From: Candidatus Parcubacteria bacterium
GTDB taxonomy: Bacteria > Patescibacteriota > Patescibacteriia > Patescibacteriales > UBA12075
Direction: 5' to 3'
Length of the DNA: 64,000 nucleotides
NCBI GenBank assembly: GCA_002869165.1
Contig: PKTK01000003.1
Span: forward strand, 84,195-148,194
Of this stretch, positions 4,954 through 61,803 are shown one piece after another (within the stretch, counting starts at the first letter, position 1; each line of letters starts with the position of its first letter). Below the pieces are notes generated by a model, which was not told the DNA's origin, did no database searches, and saw nothing but the letters and a program-made list of their open reading frames with translations. A program made the translations under genes and the position numbers.

Positions 4954-6861
4954 ATGTGTGGTATAGCCGGCTTCTACGGGAAGGGTAGTAGTGACAATTT
5001 ACTTAAGATGACTGATGCATTAGAGCATCGGGGCCCTGATGATAGAGGGCATTTTAGTGATGGCTTGGTCGGGCTTGGGCAGAGGCGTCTGTCTATTATT
5101 GATACTAGCAGAAATGGGCATCAACCAATGAGTAATGAAGATGAGTCTGTTTGGATTGTGTTTAATGGTGAGATATATAATTTTTTGTCATTGAAAGACA
5201 GACTTAAACAAAAGCATTGTTTTAAAAGCAGTAGTGACACAGAGGTTATTTTACATTTATATGAGGAAATAGGTGAAGAAGTTTTTTCTTTGCTTGAGGG
5301 AATGTTTGCAATTGCTATATATGACAAAGAAAAGGAAGAATTGTTCTTAGCAAGAGATAGAATGGGTAAGAAACCTCTTTACTATCATCTGAATGGTAAT
5401 TCTATTATTTTCGCTTCAGAGCTAAAAGCATTGGTTAAACATAGAGATTTTGTCAAAGAGTTGAATCATGAATCGCTTAAAATGTATTTGTTTTATGAGT
5501 ATATACCGACCCCCAATTCAATATACAAGAATACTTACAAACTTGAACCAGCAACTTATTTAAAATTTAAACACGGTAAACAAAGCAAACGAAGATTTTG
5601 GAACATGTCATTTTCCAGACAAGAAGTTGGTAACGAAAAAGAGGCTTTGCTAAAACTAGACACAGCTATAAACGATTCAGTGAAAGACAGACTGGTGAGT
5701 GATGTTCCTCTTGGGATTCTTCTAAGTGGAGGCATAGATTCTAGTGCTATATGTTATTATGCGCAAAAAAATAGCAGCAGTAAGGTTAAGACTTTTTCAA
5801 TAGGGTTCAAGGAATCAAGTTTTGACGAATCAAACTACGCTAGAGAGGTTGCGAATCATCTTGGAACAGATCATCACGAAGCAATTTTGAGCGCCAATGA
5901 TTCAATTGACTTGATTGAAAAAATCGGAGATGTATTAGATGAACCAATGGCAGATCAGTCTATTTTGCCTACTTATCTTTTGTCGAGATTTACTAAAGAA
6001 AACGTAACAGTAGCGCTTGGCGGAGATGGTGGTGACGAGCTTCTTGGAGGCTATGATACTTTTGTAGCACACAGACTAGCCGAGTTTTATGAGAAAATGC
6101 CAAGTTTCATGAGAGGGGAGTGGCTCAAGGACATAAGCTCCAAGCTTCCAACTTCTTTTTCCAATTTAAGTCTAGATTTTAAAATAAAAACATTTTTAGA
6201 TGGCTTTGAGGGTGAGAAAAAATACAGAGACGCCAGGTGGATGAAGGCATTTGATGTTAATGAGGGAAGTATGTTTGCAAGTAGACTAAAAGATGAAATA
6301 AAGGGCTTTAATGAATTTTTGCCAATTGATAAATATGGAGAAGAATTTGAGCAAATCAATTCGAGCGTTGGTTTTCAAAAACATTTTAATTTTTTGACTT
6401 ATCTGTATCTTCGAATGTATATGATGGATCAAGTTTTAGTAAAGGTAGATAGGGCCAGCATGGCTAATTCGCTTGAAGTAAGAGCGCCTTTACTTGATTC
6501 TAGGGTTGTTGATCTGTCTCTGAGTCTGTCACACAAGTACAAGCTTAGGCCTTTTGCTTGGCCGTATGTATTCGAGACAAAGTATATTTTCAGAAAATTG
6601 ATGCAAGACAAGTTGCCTAATGATATTGTGTGGCGCAAGAAAAAAGGTTTTGGCGTGCCAATGGCTGAGTGGTTGAACGGACCGTTGGAGGAATTGGTAA
6701 AAGAGAAATTGTCCAAAAGAAGAATAGAAGAACAGGGAATATTTGATTATAATTTTGTGAATAATTTAATTACAGACCATAAAAAAAAGAAACAAGACCT
6801 AAGAAAACCGATTTGGACTTTGTTGATGTTTCAGTTGTGGTTTGATAGATGGATGAAATAA
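4954..6861 (+). CDS. asnB: asparagine synthase (glutamine-hydrolysing)-type amidotransferase
   Basis: The N-terminal MCGIAG supplies the catalytic Cys after Met removal. The SGGIDSS PP-loop is present. The length is about 635 aa. The ATG at 4954 is preferred over the track start at 4945 so that Cys is residue 2. Confidence 0.9.
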   Translation: MCGIAGFYGKGSSDNLLKMTDALEHRGPDDRGHFSDGLVGLGQRRLSIIDTSRNGHQPMSNEDESVWIVFNGEIYNFLSLKDRLKQKHCFKSSSDTEVILHLYEEIGEEVFSLLEGMFAIAIYDKEKEELFLARDRMGKKPLYYHLNGNSIIFASELKALVKHRDFVKELNHESLKMYLFYEYIPTPNSIYKNTYKLEPATYLKFKHGKQSKRRFWNMSFSRQEVGNEKEALLKLDTAINDSVKDRLVSDVPLGILLSGGIDSSAICYYAQKNSSSKVKTFSIGFKESSFDESNYAREVANHLGTDHHEAILSANDSIDLIEKIGDVLDEPMADQSILPTYLLSRFTKENVTVALGGDGGDELLGGYDTFVAHRLAEFYEKMPSFMRGEWLKDISSKLPTSFSNLSLDFKIKTFLDGFEGEKKYRDARWMKAFDVNEGSMFASRLKDEIKGFNEFLPIDKYGEEFEQINSSVGFQKHFNFLTYLYLRMYMMDQVLVKVDRASMANSLEVRAPLLDSRVVDLSLSLSHKYKLRPFAWPYVFETKYIFRKLMQDKLPNDIVWRKKKGFGVPMAEWLNGPLEELVKEKLSKRRIEEQGIFDYNFVNNLITDHKKKKQDLRKPIWTLLMFQLWFDRWMK

Positions 6862-54853: not shown

Positions 54854-54880
54854 TTAGCACTCTCTTGACACGAGTGCTAA
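54854..54880 (+). promoter_or_regulatory. CIRCE operator (HrcA binding site)
   Basis: TTAGCACTC-TCTTGACAC-GAGTGCTAA is a perfect match to the CIRCE consensus TTAGCACTC-N9-GAGTGCTAA. It ends 46 nt upstream of the hrcA start. Confidence 0.92.
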
Positions 54881-54892
54881 AGATGATATAAT
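54865..54892 (+). promoter_or_regulatory. sigma-70-type promoter embedded in CIRCE
   Basis: TTGACA (54865-54870, in the CIRCE loop), a 16-nt spacer, then TATAAT (54887-54892). Both hexamers match the consensus. Confidence 0.65.
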
Positions 54893-55612: not shown

Positions 55613-56416
55613 ATGGATATGAAAAGTGCAAAAGTAATAGTTGGAGCATTTATCAAAAACGATAAAGATGAATTATTGCTTTTAAAATCTGAAAAAGGAA
55701 ATAATAAGTATACTTGTCCTAGTGGTCATGTTGAATTCAATGAAAAGCTTGAAGACGCACTAAAAAGAGAAGTAAAAAAAGAAACAGGCTTAAAGATTCA
55801 TGATATTGAGTTTCTCGGTATCGGTGAAGCAGTGAAGAAGGGCAAGGAATTTAAAAAAAATGAAGAGCATCACGTATATATAAATTACTCTGCTAGAGTA
55901 AAAAATGATAAAGTTAAGCATAGCGATGAATCAAGTGGATACAAATGGCTAAAGATCGAAGAATGGAAAAAAAGAGACGATATAGGAGTAGATGTCGTTG
56001 ATATTTTGGATAAATTGAGTGCAGATACTTATGAAAATATGTATAAGAGAGCTCTGGCTGATTATCAAAATCTTTTAAAACAAAACGCCAAAGAAAAACA
56101 AGATTTAGTTAAATATGCCAACGAACAATTTTTGTATGAGTTATTACCGGTTTACGACAATCTAAAAGTTTCTTTGCTTCATATAAATGAAAGTAGCGAT
56201 GTCAATGCTTGGGCAGAAGGAATAAAGTATGTAGTTAAACAATTTTCTCAAGTTTTGGAAGGGATTGGTGTCGAGGAAATAAAGACAATTGGTGAGAAAT
56301 TTAATCACGAAACAATGGAGGCGATGAAAGGCAGAGGGGAGATTGTTAAAAAGGAAGTAAGGCCAGGCTACAAATTAAATGGCAAAGTAATAATTGCCGC
56401 TAAAGTTGAACTATAA
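55613..56416 (+). CDS. grpE: Nudix hydrolase domain fused to GrpE nucleotide-exchange factor core
   Basis: Residues 1 to about 135 carry a Nudix box, GHVEFNEKLEDALKREVKKETGL (GX5EX7REVxKExGL). Residues from about 140 to 267 carry the GrpE pattern: YKRALADYQNLLKQNAKEKQDLVKYANEQFLYELLPVYDNL.., a four-helix bundle and a beta domain ending ..YKLNGKVIIAAKVEL. It is a single uninterrupted ORF. Confidence 0.85.
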   Translation: MDMKSAKVIVGAFIKNDKDELLLLKSEKGNNKYTCPSGHVEFNEKLEDALKREVKKETGLKIHDIEFLGIGEAVKKGKEFKKNEEHHVYINYSARVKNDKVKHSDESSGYKWLKIEEWKKRDDIGVDVVDILDKLSADTYENMYKRALADYQNLLKQNAKEKQDLVKYANEQFLYELLPVYDNLKVSLLHINESSDVNAWAEGIKYVVKQFSQVLEGIGVEEIKTIGEKFNHETMEAMKGRGEIVKKEVRPGYKLNGKVIIAAKVEL

Positions 56417-56483: not shown

Positions 56484-56918
56484 ATGTCGCTAATAAGATG
56501 GAGTCCATTTTTCGAACCATTCGAGGAAATGGAAAAGGCTTTTGGAGACATGACTCCAAGCATTAGAAATAACCAGTTTGGTTTTGTGCCAGCGGTAGAT
56601 ATGTATGAAGAAAAAGACAATGTAGTAGTGGAGGCTAATTTAGCAGGCATTGATCCGGAAAAAGTAAATGTTTCAATCGAGAATGATGTCTTGTGTATCA
56701 AGGGAGAAAGCGAGAAAAAAAGCGAAGTGGATGACAAGAATTATTATCGCAAAGAAATAAGAAGAGGATCCTTTTATAGATCTGTTACATTGCCAGCCAA
56801 AGTGGATGGTGATAGGGCAAATGCTGTAACAGAGGATGGAGTACTTAAAATAAGTATACCAAAAATAAAAGAATCTAAGCCAAAACAAATTAAAATTAAA
56901 AATAAGAAAAATAAGTAA
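56484..56918 (+). CDS. small heat-shock protein (Hsp20/alpha-crystallin family)
   Basis: It has the alpha-crystallin domain PAVDMYEEKDNVVVEANLAGIDPEKVNVSIENDVLCIKGE..FYRSVTLPAKVD..GVLKISIPK. Confidence 0.9.
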   Translation: MSLIRWSPFFEPFEEMEKAFGDMTPSIRNNQFGFVPAVDMYEEKDNVVVEANLAGIDPEKVNVSIENDVLCIKGESEKKSEVDDKNYYRKEIRRGSFYRSVTLPAKVDGDRANAVTEDGVLKISIPKIKESKPKQIKIKNKKNK

Positions 56919-57013: not shown

Positions 57014-57904
57014 ATGGGCAGTTTAAACATTTCAGTCAACAAAGAGGAAGAGTCAAAAAAACCTGCCAAAAAAAGAGGTAGACCAAGAAAAGCTACTATA
57101 AAAACAGTCGCCAAAAGTGCTGAGATTAAGACTAGTGTAGCTGAAGCTCGCAAGAAATCAAAGACGGTTGATAAACAAAAAGATTCAAAAAAGAATCCCA
57201 AAAAAGAGAGAAATATTTTGACTACTATTATTTCAGCGGTCGTTGTTTCTTTGATAGTCGGGGGAGTGATTTATGCTTGGAAGACTGATGAAGGAAAAAA
57301 GAAGATTGATCAATTAAGAAGCGATGCCAAAGCTGTTAGAGTTGGTTTTGAACAAGATATTGATAGATTGAAGAATAAGCTAACTGGCATAGAAACAGAA
57401 AATGAAGAATTAAAAAATACCACCAAAGAACTTGAAGAACAGGTTAAGTTATTAAATGGGGCAAAAAAGGATTTTGTAGATCCTGAATTGGGAATTAGCT
57501 TTGACTATCCTGCGACCTTTGGTGATGTAGTTCTTGAAATGGTAGATGGCAAAACTGGTAAGAAATTCAAAGGCACATTTTCCAAAAATGAAAAATTAGT
57601 TTTTGGGGGAGTGAGTAGTGATTATGAGCCAATGGCGACCACTACTATCGTTGAATTTTTAGAAACTCAAGGTTTTTATGAGAGAAGAGATAATTACTAT
57701 TTTATTGGTATTGGGGAAGACAGAGAATCTGAGGATATAGAAATGATTCCAAGTAAAGGAATTGAATATGATGATAATGTTGCCTTAATCATCTACAAGA
57801 ACAGTTTTGTTCTTGATGAGGGCGCTGATGGTTTACCAGTAAATATTGGTGAAAATATTGGCGCACTAGTTAATCTAGAAGGTGATAATTTCTTTGGTCT
57901 GTGA
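57014..57904 (+). CDS. hypothetical membrane-anchored protein with N-terminal AT-hook-like basic tail and coiled coil
   Basis: KKPAKKRGRPRKA contains the RGRP core. A single TM helix (ILTTIISAVVVSLIVGGVIYAW) follows, then a coiled coil (..IDRLKNKLTGIETENEELKNTTKELEEQVKLL) and a C-terminal domain of about 150 aa. Confidence 0.6.
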   Translation: MGSLNISVNKEEESKKPAKKRGRPRKATIKTVAKSAEIKTSVAEARKKSKTVDKQKDSKKNPKKERNILTTIISAVVVSLIVGGVIYAWKTDEGKKKIDQLRSDAKAVRVGFEQDIDRLKNKLTGIETENEELKNTTKELEEQVKLLNGAKKDFVDPELGISFDYPATFGDVVLEMVDGKTGKKFKGTFSKNEKLVFGGVSSDYEPMATTTIVEFLETQGFYERRDNYYFIGIGEDRESEDIEMIPSKGIEYDDNVALIIYKNSFVLDEGADGLPVNIGENIGALVNLEGDNFFGL

Positions 57905-58020: not shown

Positions 58021-59925
58021 ATGGGAAAAATATTAGGAATTGATCTAGGTACCACCAATTCAGCTATGGCTATTATGGAAGGTGGTAAACCCAAGATACT
58101 TGAAAATGCAGAAGGAAACAGAACAACTCCTTCAATTGTGGCGATTTCTAAAAATGGAGAAAGATTGGTTGGGCAAAGTGCCAAAAGACAATCTGTAACC
58201 AATCCTGAAAATACAGTTTATGCTGTTAAGAGATTGATCGGTAGAAAATTTGAAGACGCCGAAGTGCAAAAAGATGTAAAAACATCACCTTACAAAATAA
58301 TTAAATCAGATACTGCTGTAAAGGTATCTATGAATGGTAAGGATTATTCTCCAGAAGAAATTTCTGCCATGATCTTATCAAAGTTAAAAGCAGACGCAGA
58401 AGCTAAAATTGGTGAAAAGATTACCGAAGCTGTTATTACCGTGCCTGCCTACTTTGATGATTCACAAAGGCAAGCTACCAAGGATGCTGGTAAGATTGCT
58501 GGGCTTGAAGTAAAAAGAATTGTAAACGAACCAACCGCTGCCGCTTTAGCATATGGATTTGAAAAGAAAAAAGGCCAGCAGATCGCTGTTTATGATCTTG
58601 GTGGTGGTACTTTTGATATTTCAATTTTGGACGTTTCAGAAGATACTGTAGAAGTTAAATCTACTAACGGAGATACTCATTTAGGTGGTGAAGATTTTGA
58701 TAAAGCAATTATTAATTGGATTTTGGATGAGTTTAAAAAAGATAATGGAATTGATTTATCTCATGATCCATTGGCTTTACAAAGAATTAAAGAAGCAGCT
58801 GAAAAAGCTAAGATTGAGCTTTCTACTACGATGGAATCTGAGATCAATCAGCCATTTATAACAACTGATGAAACTGGGCCAAAACATATGGTTATGAAAT
58901 TAACTAGAGCCAAGCTTGAAGACTTGGTCGGTGATTTAGTGGAAAAGACTTTAAAACCATGTAAAGATGCTTTGGCTGATGCCGGGTTAAGTACTTCTGA
59001 TATTGAAGAAGTTATTATGGTAGGTGGTATGACCAGGATGCCACTTGTCCAAGAGAAAGTTAAGAAATTTTTTGACAAAGAACCACACTTAGGAGTAAAT
59101 CCTGATGAGGTGGTGGCTAATGGAGCTGCAGTACAGGCAGGTGTTTTACAGGGCGATGTTAAGGATGTTTTATTGCTTGATGTTACTCCATTGACATTGG
59201 GAATTGAAACTCTTGGTGGAGTTGCTACTCCTTTGATCGATAGAAATACAACTATTCCAACTTCAAAATCACAAATATTTTCAACAGCAGCTGATAACCA
59301 ACCTAGTGTAGAGATACATGTTTTACAGGGAGAAAGATCAATGGCTAGTGATAACAAGACTTTAGGCCGTTTTATTCTAGATGGTTTACCACCAGCACCA
59401 AGAGGCGTACCACAAGTTGAAGTTTCTTTTGATCTTGATTCAAACGGAATTCTAAATGTAAAAGCACTTGACAAAGCTAGTGGAAAAGAACAGAAAATTA
59501 CGATTACAGCTAGCTCATCTCTTTCCGAAGATGAAGTTGAAAAGATGAAAAAAGAAGCTGAGATGCATGCTGAAGAAGATAAGAAGAAAAAAGAAAAGAT
59601 TGAAGTGGTTAATAATGCTGATTCTGTAATTTTTCAAACTGAAAAACTTATCAAAGATACTGGTGATAAAATGAAAGACGAAGACAAAAAAGAACTAGAA
59701 GAAAAAATTACTGCCTTGAAAAAGGCCAAAGAAGCTGATGATTTAGATGATATGAAAAAGAAAATGGAAGAGATGAATGAAGTTGCCCAAAGAATAGGTT
59801 CTGCTATGTATCAACAACAAGCTCAAGCAGGAGGAGCTGCTCCAGGTGCTGAAGCTTCAGAGCAAGCTGAGGAGAAGAAGAATGATGATGAGGTGGTAGA
59901 AGGTGAAGTGGAAGAAAATAAATAA
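58021..59925 (+). CDS. dnaK: molecular chaperone DnaK (Hsp70)
   Basis: It has [17 protein letters not shown] and VGGMTRMP, and is full length at 634 aa with an acidic C-terminus. Confidence 0.98.
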
Positions 59926-59942
59926 ATTAAAATAAATTCTTA

Positions 59943-59968
59943 GTCTACTGATTGTTAAATCAGTAGAC
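59943..59968 (+). other. 10-bp perfect hairpin directly after dnaK (no T-run)
   Basis: GTCTACTGAT-TGTTAA-ATCAGTAGAC lies 18 nt after the dnaK stop and about 30 nt upstream of a strong AAGGAGG. Confidence 0.5.
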
Positions 59969-60009
59969 ACTAGAGTTCATTTTTACTAACAAAACCAAAG
60001 GAGGAAAAT

Positions 60010-60261
60010 GTGATTCAAAGCATTGAACAATCTGATTTAATTAAAGGGAAAAAATTTATCGTTGAGCTTGGAAATAATCGGCAATGTGTACTTATTAAAG
60101 ACAACATTATTTTGCCAGGACAGGATAGTCCAGCTAAGTCAAAACTTGAATTAAAACATTGCTTCGTCGGGAAACCCATGATCTTTGTCTATACCAATCT
60201 TGACGGAGAAATCTCATATCCAGAGTTAGGTTCAGTGGTCCAGTCTATCAGGGCTTTGTGA
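60010..60261 (+). CDS. hypothetical protein (83 aa, GTG start)
   Basis: AAGGAGG lies 6 nt upstream of the GTG at 60010. I recognised no family. It sits between dnaK and dnaJ. Confidence 0.5.
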   Translation: MIQSIEQSDLIKGKKFIVELGNNRQCVLIKDNIILPGQDSPAKSKLELKHCFVGKPMIFVYTNLDGEISYPELGSVVQSIRAL

Positions 60262-60326
60262 TCAAAGTGTGGGAGACTTGTTTCCCCCACAATTATTTTA
60301 AAATTATTAATTTAACATATAAAAAT

Positions 60327-60617
60327 ATGACAAATCAAAATAATCAACCACAAAAAAAGGAAATTAAAATCGCTGACAATATTCCCGGAGCAGAATACTC
60401 AAATGCCATGCAGGTAAATCATAATAAAGATGAATTTCAACTTGTGTTTTTAAATATTTTTGGTGGTTCTGGAAGAGTTGCCGGAAAGATTGTTACTAGC
60501 CCAGGTCATTACAAAAGAATGATTATGGCCATGCAGGATAATCTGAATAAATACGAAGACAACTTTGGTGAAATAAAAGAAGCTAGTGCTCCGGAGAAGG
60601 AGATTGGATTTAAATAA
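60327..60617 (+). CDS. DUF3467-family protein
   Basis: The sequence from ATG 60327 (MTNQNNQPQKKEIKI..YSNAMQVNHNKDEFQLVFLNI..GKIVTSPGHYKRMIMAMQDNLNKYEDNFGEI) resembles the DUF3467 pattern as I recall it. The track start at 60258 is a GTG with a poor N-terminus. Confidence 0.6.
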   Translation: MTNQNNQPQKKEIKIADNIPGAEYSNAMQVNHNKDEFQLVFLNIFGGSGRVAGKIVTSPGHYKRMIMAMQDNLNKYEDNFGEIKEASAPEKEIGFK

Positions 60618-60717
60618 TTATTGCAAAATAATAAATTCACAAATACTAATTAAAACAGAATGTGAATAATAGATTTTTTGTGAATTTGTGCTTTGATTTA
60701 GTGAATTTGTAATTCAT

Positions 60718-61803
60718 ATGGGAAAAGATTATTACAATATATTAGGAGTGTCTAAAAGCGCTAGCCAAGATGAGATTAAAAAAGCTTTTCGAAAAAAGGC
60801 TCATGAATATCATCCAGACAAAGCGAGCGGAGATGAGGCTAAGTTTAAGGAGGTAAACGAAGCTTACCAGGTTATTGGAGACTCTAAAAAAAGAAGTCAA
60901 TACGATCAATATGGTTCCAGCTTTGAGGATATGCAAAGAAATGGTGGCTTTGGTGGCTTTGGCGGTTTTAGCGGTGGTCAAGGAGGAGTTCATGTTGATA
61001 TGGATGATCTTGGTGATCTTTTTGGTGGTCTTGGTGATATGTTTGGTTTTGGTGGAGGAAGCACTAGAACTAGTACAAGATCAAGAAAAGCAAATGATGT
61101 TAGAGTCGCTATTGAAATTGATTTTTTAGAAGCGGTAAAAGGAGTTGAAAAGGAATTGAAATTCAAGAAAAAAATAAAGTGTGAGCATTGTAACGGCAAT
61201 ATGGCAGAACCAGGTTCAAAGATTTCCAACTGTAATAAATGTAATGGAACAGGAAGGGTGACCAAAATACAAAGAACGATATTGGGGAATATGCAAATGC
61301 AAGCAACCTGTGATGATTGTAATGGCGAAGGAAAGACGTACGAACAAAAGTGTAGCAAATGTCATGGCGACGGAGTAGTGGAAGACTTGTTTAAGTTAAA
61401 AGTCAAAATTCCGGCAGGTATTGATGATGGCGAAACTATTCGTATCAGAGAAAAAGGTGAAGCTGGTGTAGGCGGGGCTAAGGACGGAGATTTATTTTTG
61501 CTTATTAGAGTTAGACCCGATAAGCGATGGGTACGACAAGATTATGATATATTAACTGATTATAGTTTGAAGTTTTCTCAAGCAGCTCTGGGTGATAAAG
61601 TTAAGATTGAAACTGTTGATGGTGAGGTAAGTCTTAAGATTCCAGCTGGAACTCAAGCAGGAACCAGGTTCAAATTGCGAGGCAAGGGAATAAATAATCT
61701 TCATGGTGGACCAAAAGGGGATCATTATGTTAAAGTAAAGGTAGAAGTCCCTAAATCTCTAAACAGAAAACAGAAGAAAATTTTAGAGGACCTAGGTTTA
61801 TAA
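60718..61803 (+). CDS. dnaJ: molecular chaperone DnaJ (type I Hsp40)
   Basis: It has a J-domain with the HPD motif (YHPDK), a G/F-rich linker, four CxxCxGxG zinc motifs and the C-terminal substrate domains. Confidence 0.97.

Follow-up and report, generated by a model that had tools for sequence, protein, structure and literature searches.

A conserved fusion of a Nudix-fold module to the co-chaperone GrpE in Patescibacteria

A single open reading frame (ORF) in a 64,000-nucleotide stretch of a Candidatus Parcubacteria genome (contig PKTK01000003.1, positions 84,195 to 148,194; hereafter the window) encodes a protein of 267 amino acids (aa) in which a Nudix domain is joined to the nucleotide exchange factor GrpE. 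This nudix-grpE fusion is a real, conserved architecture that is widespread in Patescibacteria. We put the probability at about 60% that the product is a genuine, conserved, heat-shock-regulated bifunctional co-chaperone in a subset of these bacteria. To judge from the conserved residues, most members probably carry a Nudix module that works as a pyrophosphohydrolase on some small substrate of nucleotide type.

The gene was first noticed by a reader given only the letters of the window and a list of its ORFs (the sequence-only reading), and the description of one 267-aa ORF with both domains proved exact down to its coordinates. Pfam places NUDIX (PF00293) at residues 8-118 (E 2e-17, 63.9 bits against a gathering cut-off of 21.1) and GrpE (PF01025) at residues 136-266 (E 1.5e-28, 100 bits against 25.8, positions 26-162 of 165 in the hidden Markov model, HMM). 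Both matches exceed the curated cut-offs and are far beyond chance. The peptides YKRALADYQNLLKQNAKEKQ and LLPVYDNL lie at residues 144-163 and 177-184. A model of the protein was built with AlphaFold2 (AF2) on 111 homologues (mean predicted local distance difference test score 83.7; predicted template modelling score, pTM, 0.53). It has a Nudix alpha/beta/alpha sandwich at residues 7-119 with its C-terminal helix at 126-136, then a three-residue break, a single 51-residue helix at 140-190, a helix at 199-217 and a beta domain at 220-266.

All of the 120 best of 1673 homologues carry PF00293 together with PF01025 (44-60% identity, 272-305 aa), and their named sources are Parcubacteria, Falkowbacteria and the Patescibacteria group. 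The identical protein, including a lysine at residue 56 that is considered below, was also assembled in Logan SRR5894289 (79 kb contig) and in ENA ERZ794998. Because at least 120 homologues share the architecture and the same protein occurs in other datasets, the fusion is not an artefact. An intact fusion is present in about 29 of 80 species-representative genomes. Exhaustive HMMER searching with the Nudix half alone returned 212 representatives at E<=1e-10, and Nudix+GrpE proteins made up 20 of the top 150 (50% clustering). Gene order is also kept. A 1.27 Mb contig carries mreB-mreC-x-PBP2-IMPDH-hrcA-nudixgrpE-hsp20-unknown-dnaK-...-dnaJ at ~55% identity, and hrcA-nudixgrpE-hsp20-dnaK synteny was seen on the contigs of further relatives. 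The survey of databases that the sequence-only reading had proposed thus bore it out, with every one of the best homologues fused and the order from hrcA to dnaK retained. Databases annotate these homologues simply as "nucleotide exchange factor GrpE", with one JGI name giving both domains.

Some of the records carry unexpected taxonomic titles. In what follows, L and P numbers (L008, P0057 and so on) label relatives' GrpE loci and database proteins. Loci L006, L007, L009, L010, L012 and many others, which are metagenome-assembled genomes deposited as third-party annotation (TPA) assemblies, are titled "uncultured Gammaproteobacteria bacterium", and one fusion record (P0090) of the type found in the Candidate Phyla Radiation (CPR) is titled "Planctomycetes bacterium". 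Such titles are probably placeholder or wrong taxonomic labels rather than evidence of the fusion outside Patescibacteria.

Residues 140-267 form a complete GrpE core with the DnaK-contact stalk segment, the bundle helices and the beta-domain. In PDB the family profile matched GrpE of G. kaustophilus (4ANI, 6.6e-27), T. thermophilus (3A6M, 1.2e-18) and E. coli (1DKG, 1.2e-15) as well as human GrpEL1 and GrpE of Mycobacterium tuberculosis (Mtb; 8GB3), and the alignment extends to the end of 4ANI, 3A6M and 1DKG. Published structures and nuclear magnetic resonance data show that stalk segment aa 60-80 of GrpE touches subdomain IA of DnaK's nucleotide-binding domain (NBD) and the substrate-binding domain (SBD), and that the R64/N71/K74 stretch is the essential DnaK-contacting segment (PMC10803776). 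Residues 142-162 of the window protein align as the counterpart of Mtb aa 60-80, and nowhere is the family better conserved: Y144, K156 and every residue from R146 to L154 reach at least 90%, and the stalk has a mean pairwise identity of 0.72 within the family. R146, N153 and K156 align with R64, N71 and K74 of E. coli and Mtb, and L155, Q157 and K160 stand in place of R73, R75 and R78. The NCBIfam GrpE equivalog cut-offs were not reached (best 70.9 bits against 194); the protein's GrpE is a divergent CPR GrpE.

The Nudix fold stands where canonical GrpE has its disordered tail (E. coli ~1-33) and roughly residues 40-57, the first third of the stalk. Most family members have only ~5-12 residues before the first Nudix strand. 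The sequence-only reading had the module replacing both the disordered N-terminus and the long paired helix; the tail and the first part of the stalk are indeed replaced, but the stalk helix is largely kept (residues 140-190). In the AF2 model the connector between Nudix fold and stalk is ~3 residues long, and the spacing from W112 to A147 is 35-41 residues across the family. The linker region is the least conserved part of the fusion (0.26 identity). In canonical GrpE the N-terminal tail binds the SBD groove of DnaK, which its 17-IIM-19 motif occupies transiently (Gierasch and colleagues, PMC12915176). GrpE 33-197 is poor at peptide release, and melting of the coiled coil gives GrpE its temperature dependence (PMC12915176).

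Residues 1-136 form a small Nudix fold of the MutT/NUDT1/NudI type, matched by Foldseek to many Nudix structures with probability 1.00 over alignments of 118-150 columns. Among the 120 homologues the residues of the Nudix box are close to invariant (G38 in 119, E44 in 120, R52 in 120, E53 in 117, E56 in 118, E57 in 120), as are H86, E106 and W112. The complete box GX5EX7REUXEEXGU is a family property except for its last Gly, which is Asn in 85/120. More than 95% of the family keep all catalytic residues, a pattern in the alignment that would be hard to explain without catalysis.

The window protein departs from this pattern at one catalytic position. As the sequence-only reading had observed, the EE pair has Lys in place of its first Glu, which breaks the box at residue 56. 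The lysine is not a family trait, as 118 of the 120 homologues have Glu there and the window protein is the only one with Lys. Because it is the sole Lys among 120 homologues, Lys56 is uninformative on the chemistry of the family. The window protein deviates at 4/26 conserved Nudix positions (P6A, F15K, G37S, E56K), which ranks it 10th of 111, and at 2/50 conserved positions of the GrpE half, which ranks it 49th. Single catalytic losses elsewhere are E53K in P0052 and P0080 and E57K in P0149. In RppH the Mg2+ ligands are E53 and E57, with E56 as the putative catalytic residue (PMC7144940). Since the substitution reverses the charge at the equivalent of this RppH position, E56K probably weakens or abolishes hydrolysis by the window copy. 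A literature search for mutational data on MutT E56 gave nothing usable.

The relatives of the Nudix half spread over several activities. By profile the nearest solved structure is 4KYX, annotated "ADP-ribose pyrophosphatase MutT" (8e-18), followed by AtNUDX1 (7.5e-14), NudI (2e-13), Ap4A hydrolases (~1e-10) and MutT (1e-8). Foldseek E-values are flat, from 1e-10 to 5e-9, over GDPMH, NUDT15, MutT-like proteins, AtNUDX1, Ap4A/Ap6A hydrolases and NudI; AtNUDX1 superposes on the Nudix half with 30% identity and a root-mean-square deviation of 1.7-1.9 A. The ADP-ribose-bound Nudix domain of NrtR is also among the Foldseek matches, at rank 46. None of the NCBIfam Nudix equivalogs reached its cut-off (NudI 36.9 against 95, NAD+ diphosphatase 33 against 158, RppH 32.4 against 139, YtkD 27.2 against 154 bits).

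Subfamily markers were likewise examined. Dunn et al. 1999 reportedly gave a Pro ~16 residues past the Nudix box as the marker of ADP-ribose pyrophosphatases, and a Tyr 16-18 residues past the box is said to be their marker of ApnA hydrolases. The Pro marker is lacking, as position 76 is K in the window protein and L in 68, V in 17 and P in 15 of 120 family members. A conserved aromatic, Y80 (Y in 90, F in 8 of 120; F in the window protein), lies 20 residues past the box, and nothing is conserved at +16 to +18. The NADH pyrophosphatase motif SQPWPFPxS is absent from the window sequence and from the family consensus. Ap4A builds up in stressed cells and forms crosslinks with DnaK, GroEL and ClpB (review PMC10148737). 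The link between Ap4A and DnaK has been open since 1991 (Johnstone & Farr, as cited in PMC10148737).

Related GrpEs, 55-69% identical in the GrpE half, differ in what precedes the same stalk. Automatic labelling of the 80 species-representative genomes gave a short basic tail only in 28 (e.g. L028, L066), an intact Nudix in 24 (most of L001-L027, and L064), DUF1653 in 20 (e.g. L030), DUF1653 plus Nudix in 4 (e.g. L013) and a Nudix fold with a degenerate box in 5. In the last group the box is fully lost in L031 (LSALVPSKKEPLETIKKKAEKELNL), L033, L038 and L040, and partly lost in the fused copy of L008. L042, a degenerate Nudix followed by DUF1653, was counted under DUF1653. The box-lost clade consists of GrpEs of 266-267 aa (L031 754-1554, L033 5992-6792, L038 1580-2377, L040 5980-6780) in which RE has become KK and G38 and E44 are gone, with a Nudix-like fold retained. 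No intact Nudix was found near these loci within the flanks examined (up to 6 kb per side).

DUF1653 (PF07866), with the motif YRHYKGGEY, occupies the N-terminus of many sister-lineage GrpEs in place of Nudix. It was found in the ORFs of L030, L032, L035-L037, L039, L041, L045, L047, L050-L052, L055, L060, L063, L070 and L072-L074 and in the database proteins P0094, P0096, P0099 and P0101, and it precedes Nudix in L013, L015, L022 and L023. In PDB its sole relative is 3BE3, a protein that is itself uncharacterised. DUF1653-GrpE seems about as common as Nudix-GrpE and likewise appears not to have been described.

In other lineages the Nudix module is doubled. The tandem lineage L008, L082 and L083 has a standalone intact nudix gene just upstream of the fusion, in the order hrcA-nudix-nudixgrpE-hsp20-dnaK-dnaJ (1062-1505 and 1520-2368 in L008; 5001-5441 and 5446-6309 in L082). 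Separate genes in relatives, which the sequence-only reading had named as evidence against a fusion, are thus not what this lineage holds, as even its downstream gene is a Nudix-GrpE fusion. Elsewhere Nudix-Nudix-GrpE forms a single protein of ~450 aa (P0132/L084 at 5001-6350, P0213, P0235, P0057). The GrpE-proximal module is damaged in L008 and P0057 (KRKIKDEIGI, KRKMKDEVGI), and the distal or standalone module is canonical. From these sequences the two-module lineages look like cases of subfunctionalisation. On a neighbour-joining tree of the GrpE domain (128 columns, no support values) the N-terminal architectures are interleaved; the tree was used for interleaving only, and gains and losses were not counted. 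Together the sequences point to two separable pressures, one on catalysis, which is kept in >95% of members or in a second copy, and one on the fold itself as a structural element at the tip of the stalk, suggested because the fold persists after catalytic decay.

The gene lies in a row of heat-shock genes (Table 1). A match to CIRCE (controlling inverted repeat of chaperone expression), the operator of HrcA, lies 46 nt 5' of the hrcA start with 0 mismatches, where 0.03 matches are expected by chance in the 64 kb window, and the -35 hexamer of a consensus promoter falls inside the CIRCE spacer. A CIRCE that overlaps the promoter is the classical arrangement for HrcA repression. Because the perfect CIRCE overlaps a consensus promoter, there is a strong case, made from sequence, that nudix-grpE belongs to an HrcA-repressed heat-shock operon. 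The gap between the end of hrcA and the start of nudix-grpE is 6 nt, and no terminator-like site was found on the + strand from hrcA to dnaK. The window holds no second grpE-like ORF (family HMM) and no other Nudix-box ORF (family HMM, box regular expression).

Table 1. The nudix-grpE fusion, its parts and its neighbours in the window
Feature	Position	Strand	Evidence
nudix-grpE fusion gene	55613..56416	+	ATG start, 267 aa plus stop; both Pfam domains
Nudix-fold module, residues 7-136, with C-terminal helix 126-136	55631..56020	+	Pfam, AF2, Foldseek
Nudix box GHVEFNEKLEDALKREVKKETGL, residues 38-60	55724..55792	+	sequence; family conservation
Lys56 codon AAA, first-Glu position of REUXEE pair (family consensus Glu)	55778..55780	+	homologue alignment
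Stalk helix of GrpE continuing into first bundle helix, residues 140-190	56030..56182	+	AF2 helix and GrpE alignments
DnaK-contact segment YKRALADYQNLLK, residues 144-156	within stalk helix 56030..56182	+	GrpE alignments
Second bundle helix of GrpE plus its C-terminal beta-sheet domain, residues 191-267	56183..56413	+	AF2, alignments; G203 aligned with E. coli G122
CIRCE operator (HrcA site), TTAGCACTC-N9-GAGTGCTAA	54854..54880	+	perfect consensus match
Sigma-70-type promoter TTGACA-16-TATAAT, extended TG	54865..54892	+	12/12 consensus match only
hrcA, short form, 226 aa	54926..55606	+	Pfam HrcA C-terminal domain, E 1e-17
hsp20, small heat-shock protein	56484..56918	+	Pfam HSP20, E 8.7e-22; syntenic in relatives
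Conserved 296-aa gene of no Pfam family, inside operon	57014..57904	+	ORF, synteny
dnaK, 634 aa, presumed partner	58021..59925	+	translation; HSP70 at same position in relatives
dnaJ	60718..61803	+	Pfam DnaJ, DnaJ_CXXCXGXG, DnaJ_C

Several features of the neighbourhood deserve mention. The CIRCE/promoter site (54854-54892) is unusually textbook-like for a CPR genome. The window HrcA has a clear C-terminal domain and a weak winged helix-turn-helix DNA-binding domain (Pfam E 0.03), and relatives have an HrcA of 228-247 aa in the same position. P0087 (389 aa) holds NUDIX, GrpE and HSP20 in one protein, either as a further fusion with the downstream hsp20 or as a read-through or gene-calling artefact. 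The 296-aa protein, which has no Pfam match above cut-off, is basic and AT-hook-like at its N-terminus (KKRGRPRK) and contains a single hydrophobic segment and a coiled-coil region; counterparts occur in L081 (307 aa, no Pfam match) and L085 and are absent in L082 and L084. The dnaK-dnaJ interval (59926-60717, ~790 nt) has no ORF >=120 aa, and its equivalent in L081 has two small genes of 93 aa and 98 aa (DUF3467). An HtrA-like protease gene follows dnaJ.

As a bifunctional co-chaperone, the GrpE dimer would display two Nudix modules at the stalk tip, by the SBD, the interdomain linker and NBD-IA of DnaK. There the module could provide nucleotide hydrolysis coupled to heat shock and also act as a structural stand-in for the missing tail. 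The leading substrate candidates would be Ap4A and similar stress dinucleotides, or NTPs, whether damaged or ordinary. Ap4A is attractive through its crosslinks to the three chaperones, but the sequence is nearer to MutT/NudI-like NTP hydrolases. With E56K, the window copy would probably serve mainly in GrpE-type exchange, its Nudix part acting as a cap that binds a ligand or has a structural role. The sequence-only reading had set the module next to the nucleotide cleft of DnaK, which does not agree with homologous complexes. Because the N-terminal end of the stalk lies near the SBD and NBD-IA, and the cleft is opened by the C-terminal beta-domain of GrpE on IB/IIB (PMC10803776), the Nudix module most likely sits by the SBD and NBD-IA and not at the IB/IIB cleft mouth.

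Four points weigh against a bifunctional co-chaperone. Many close GrpE relatives have no Nudix or have DUF1653, so that GrpE function within the group would not depend on the Nudix module. Of the nearest standalone Nudix relatives, three lie outside chaperone operons, the tandem lineage being the sole exception. No substrate is singled out by sequence, profile or fold matches. Finally, the SBD-side position is modelled on homologous complexes, and the pTM of the AF2 model is only 0.53.

The alternative that fares best, though we hold it only as a tentative possibility, is that the Nudix domain is a pseudo-enzyme in the window protein and possibly more widely, serving as a ligand sensor or structural cap with no need of hydrolysis. 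As a cap it might dimerise and stabilise the shortened coiled-coil thermosensor, or dock on the DnaK SBD. NrtR is a precedent for Nudix-related regulators, and its ADP-ribose-bound Nudix domain is among the fold matches. E56K, which among the homologues is confined to the window protein, and the higher deviation rank of its Nudix half than of its GrpE half fit a pseudo-enzyme, as do the clade that keeps the fold without the catalytic box, the E53K and E57K substitutions elsewhere, and a slot that is also filled by non-enzymatic DUF1653 or left empty. However, the retention of all catalytic residues by nearly the whole family argues for activity, and where the GrpE-proximal module is damaged the lineage retains an intact second module.

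Co-expression might also be the whole benefit of the fusion. A streamlined genome could have taken a house-cleaning Nudix enzyme into its heat-shock operon and joined it to grpE, and the enzyme would act on its own, uncoupled from the DnaK cycle. Standalone relatives with 35-45% identity do occur in unrelated contexts, one of them beside Maf and another Nudix; the module appears to have been repeatedly gained and lost on the GrpE tree, and the linker is poorly conserved. We regard this as unlikely. The connector has only about three residues and the W112-A147 spacing stays within narrow bounds, the fold outlasts catalytic decay, and the module directly adjoins the essential DnaK-contact segment and takes the place of a tail without which canonical GrpE does not function fully.

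A more far-reaching reading, which is quite doubtful, makes the Nudix module a nucleotide-gated replacement for the GrpE tail on the DnaK SBD, so that substrate release and exchange respond to an Ap4A-like stress nucleotide, whether bound or hydrolysed. If true, alarmone levels would be physically tied to the Hsp70 cycle, the intact, E56K and degenerate versions would be tuning states of one device, and DUF1653 would be another module that fits into this slot.

It is very improbable that a Nudix module beside the nucleotide cleft hydrolyses the ADP released by GrpE and thereby makes exchange irreversible. Hydrolysis of released ADP was one of the options raised in the sequence-only reading. 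The module is physically joined to the ADP-release factor, and RppH is described as a Nudix enzyme that cleaves NDPs slowly (PMC7144940). Against this stand the position of the stalk end away from the cleft, the likely cost to an energy-limited cell of losing ADP in each chaperone cycle, the E56K of the window copy, and the lack of any sequence feature that indicates ADP. An assembly artefact, in which a mis-join or lost stop codon united two genes, was rejected as having practically no chance: the standalone nudix genes of L008, L082 and L083 show that separate Nudix genes are possible at the locus, but more than 120 independent fusions come from many studies, including all of the best homologues, the identical protein was found in separate assemblies, the frame runs unbroken through the junction, where AF2 predicts a helix with confidence, and the downstream gene of the tandem lineage is itself fused.

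Bacterial GrpE is seen as an exchange factor that stands alone and has no enzymatic activity, with substrate release and temperature sensing tuned by its disordered tail and its coiled-coil stalk. To our knowledge no enzymatic fusion to bacterial GrpE has been described. A literature search combining GrpE, Nudix and Patescibacteria found no paper describing a Nudix-GrpE fusion, in agreement with the sequence-only reading, and the papers that mention both GrpE and Nudix were unrelated to it. Such a GrpE, conserved in a CPR subgroup and bearing an enzymatic module at its N-terminus, is apparently uncharacterised, although the sequences are already public under generic names, at present mostly just "GrpE". 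A group of ultra-small bacteria would have swapped the GrpE tail for a folded nucleotide hydrolase or DUF1653, which is another co-chaperone design. The fusion is a natural Rosetta-stone hint tying nucleotide or alarmone metabolism to the Hsp70 cycle, and the intact, single-mutant, degenerate, duplicated and absent Nudix modules form a natural series usable in experiments.

Compared with canonical GrpE (1DKG, 4ANI, 3A6M, 8GB3), the window protein is alike in its Pfam match, stalk residues R146/N153/K156, bundle helices, beta-domain and G203, and in its place in an hrcA-grpE-dnaK-dnaJ heat-shock operon with CIRCE. It differs in having no disordered N-terminal tail and no IIM-type SBD-binding motif, a folded 136-residue Nudix standing there instead, and the part of the stalk that corresponds to E. 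coli 40-57 is missing. With MutT/NUDT1/NudI-type hydrolases (4KYX, AtNUDX1 5GP0, NudI 3OGA, M. mazei MutT 3GRN) the Nudix half shares the alpha/beta/alpha fold of ~135 aa, profile E-values of 8e-18 to 2e-12 and, in the family consensus, G38, E44, R52, E53, E56, E57 and E106. It differs from them in the fusion to GrpE, the box Gly that is usually Asn, the E56K of the window copy, and the absence of any subfamily cut-off or motif that it reaches.

Nudix Ap4A/ApnA hydrolases (human NUDT2 3U53, C. elegans 1KT9/1KTG, A. aeolicus 3I7U, T. thermophilus Ndx1 1VC8) are alike in fold and catalytic box. They match less well (profile ~1e-10, Foldseek ~1e-9) than MutT-like proteins do, and the family's Y80 stands at +20 past the box, not at the +16-18 reported for their marker. 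NrtR-type regulators, in which a Nudix ligand sensor is joined to a DNA-binding domain, resemble the fusion in that a Nudix fold is attached to a non-enzymatic effector, and the degenerate-box clade and the E56K of the window copy recall a shift from enzyme to binder. Here, however, the partner is a co-chaperone and not a transcription factor, and most members keep their catalytic residues.

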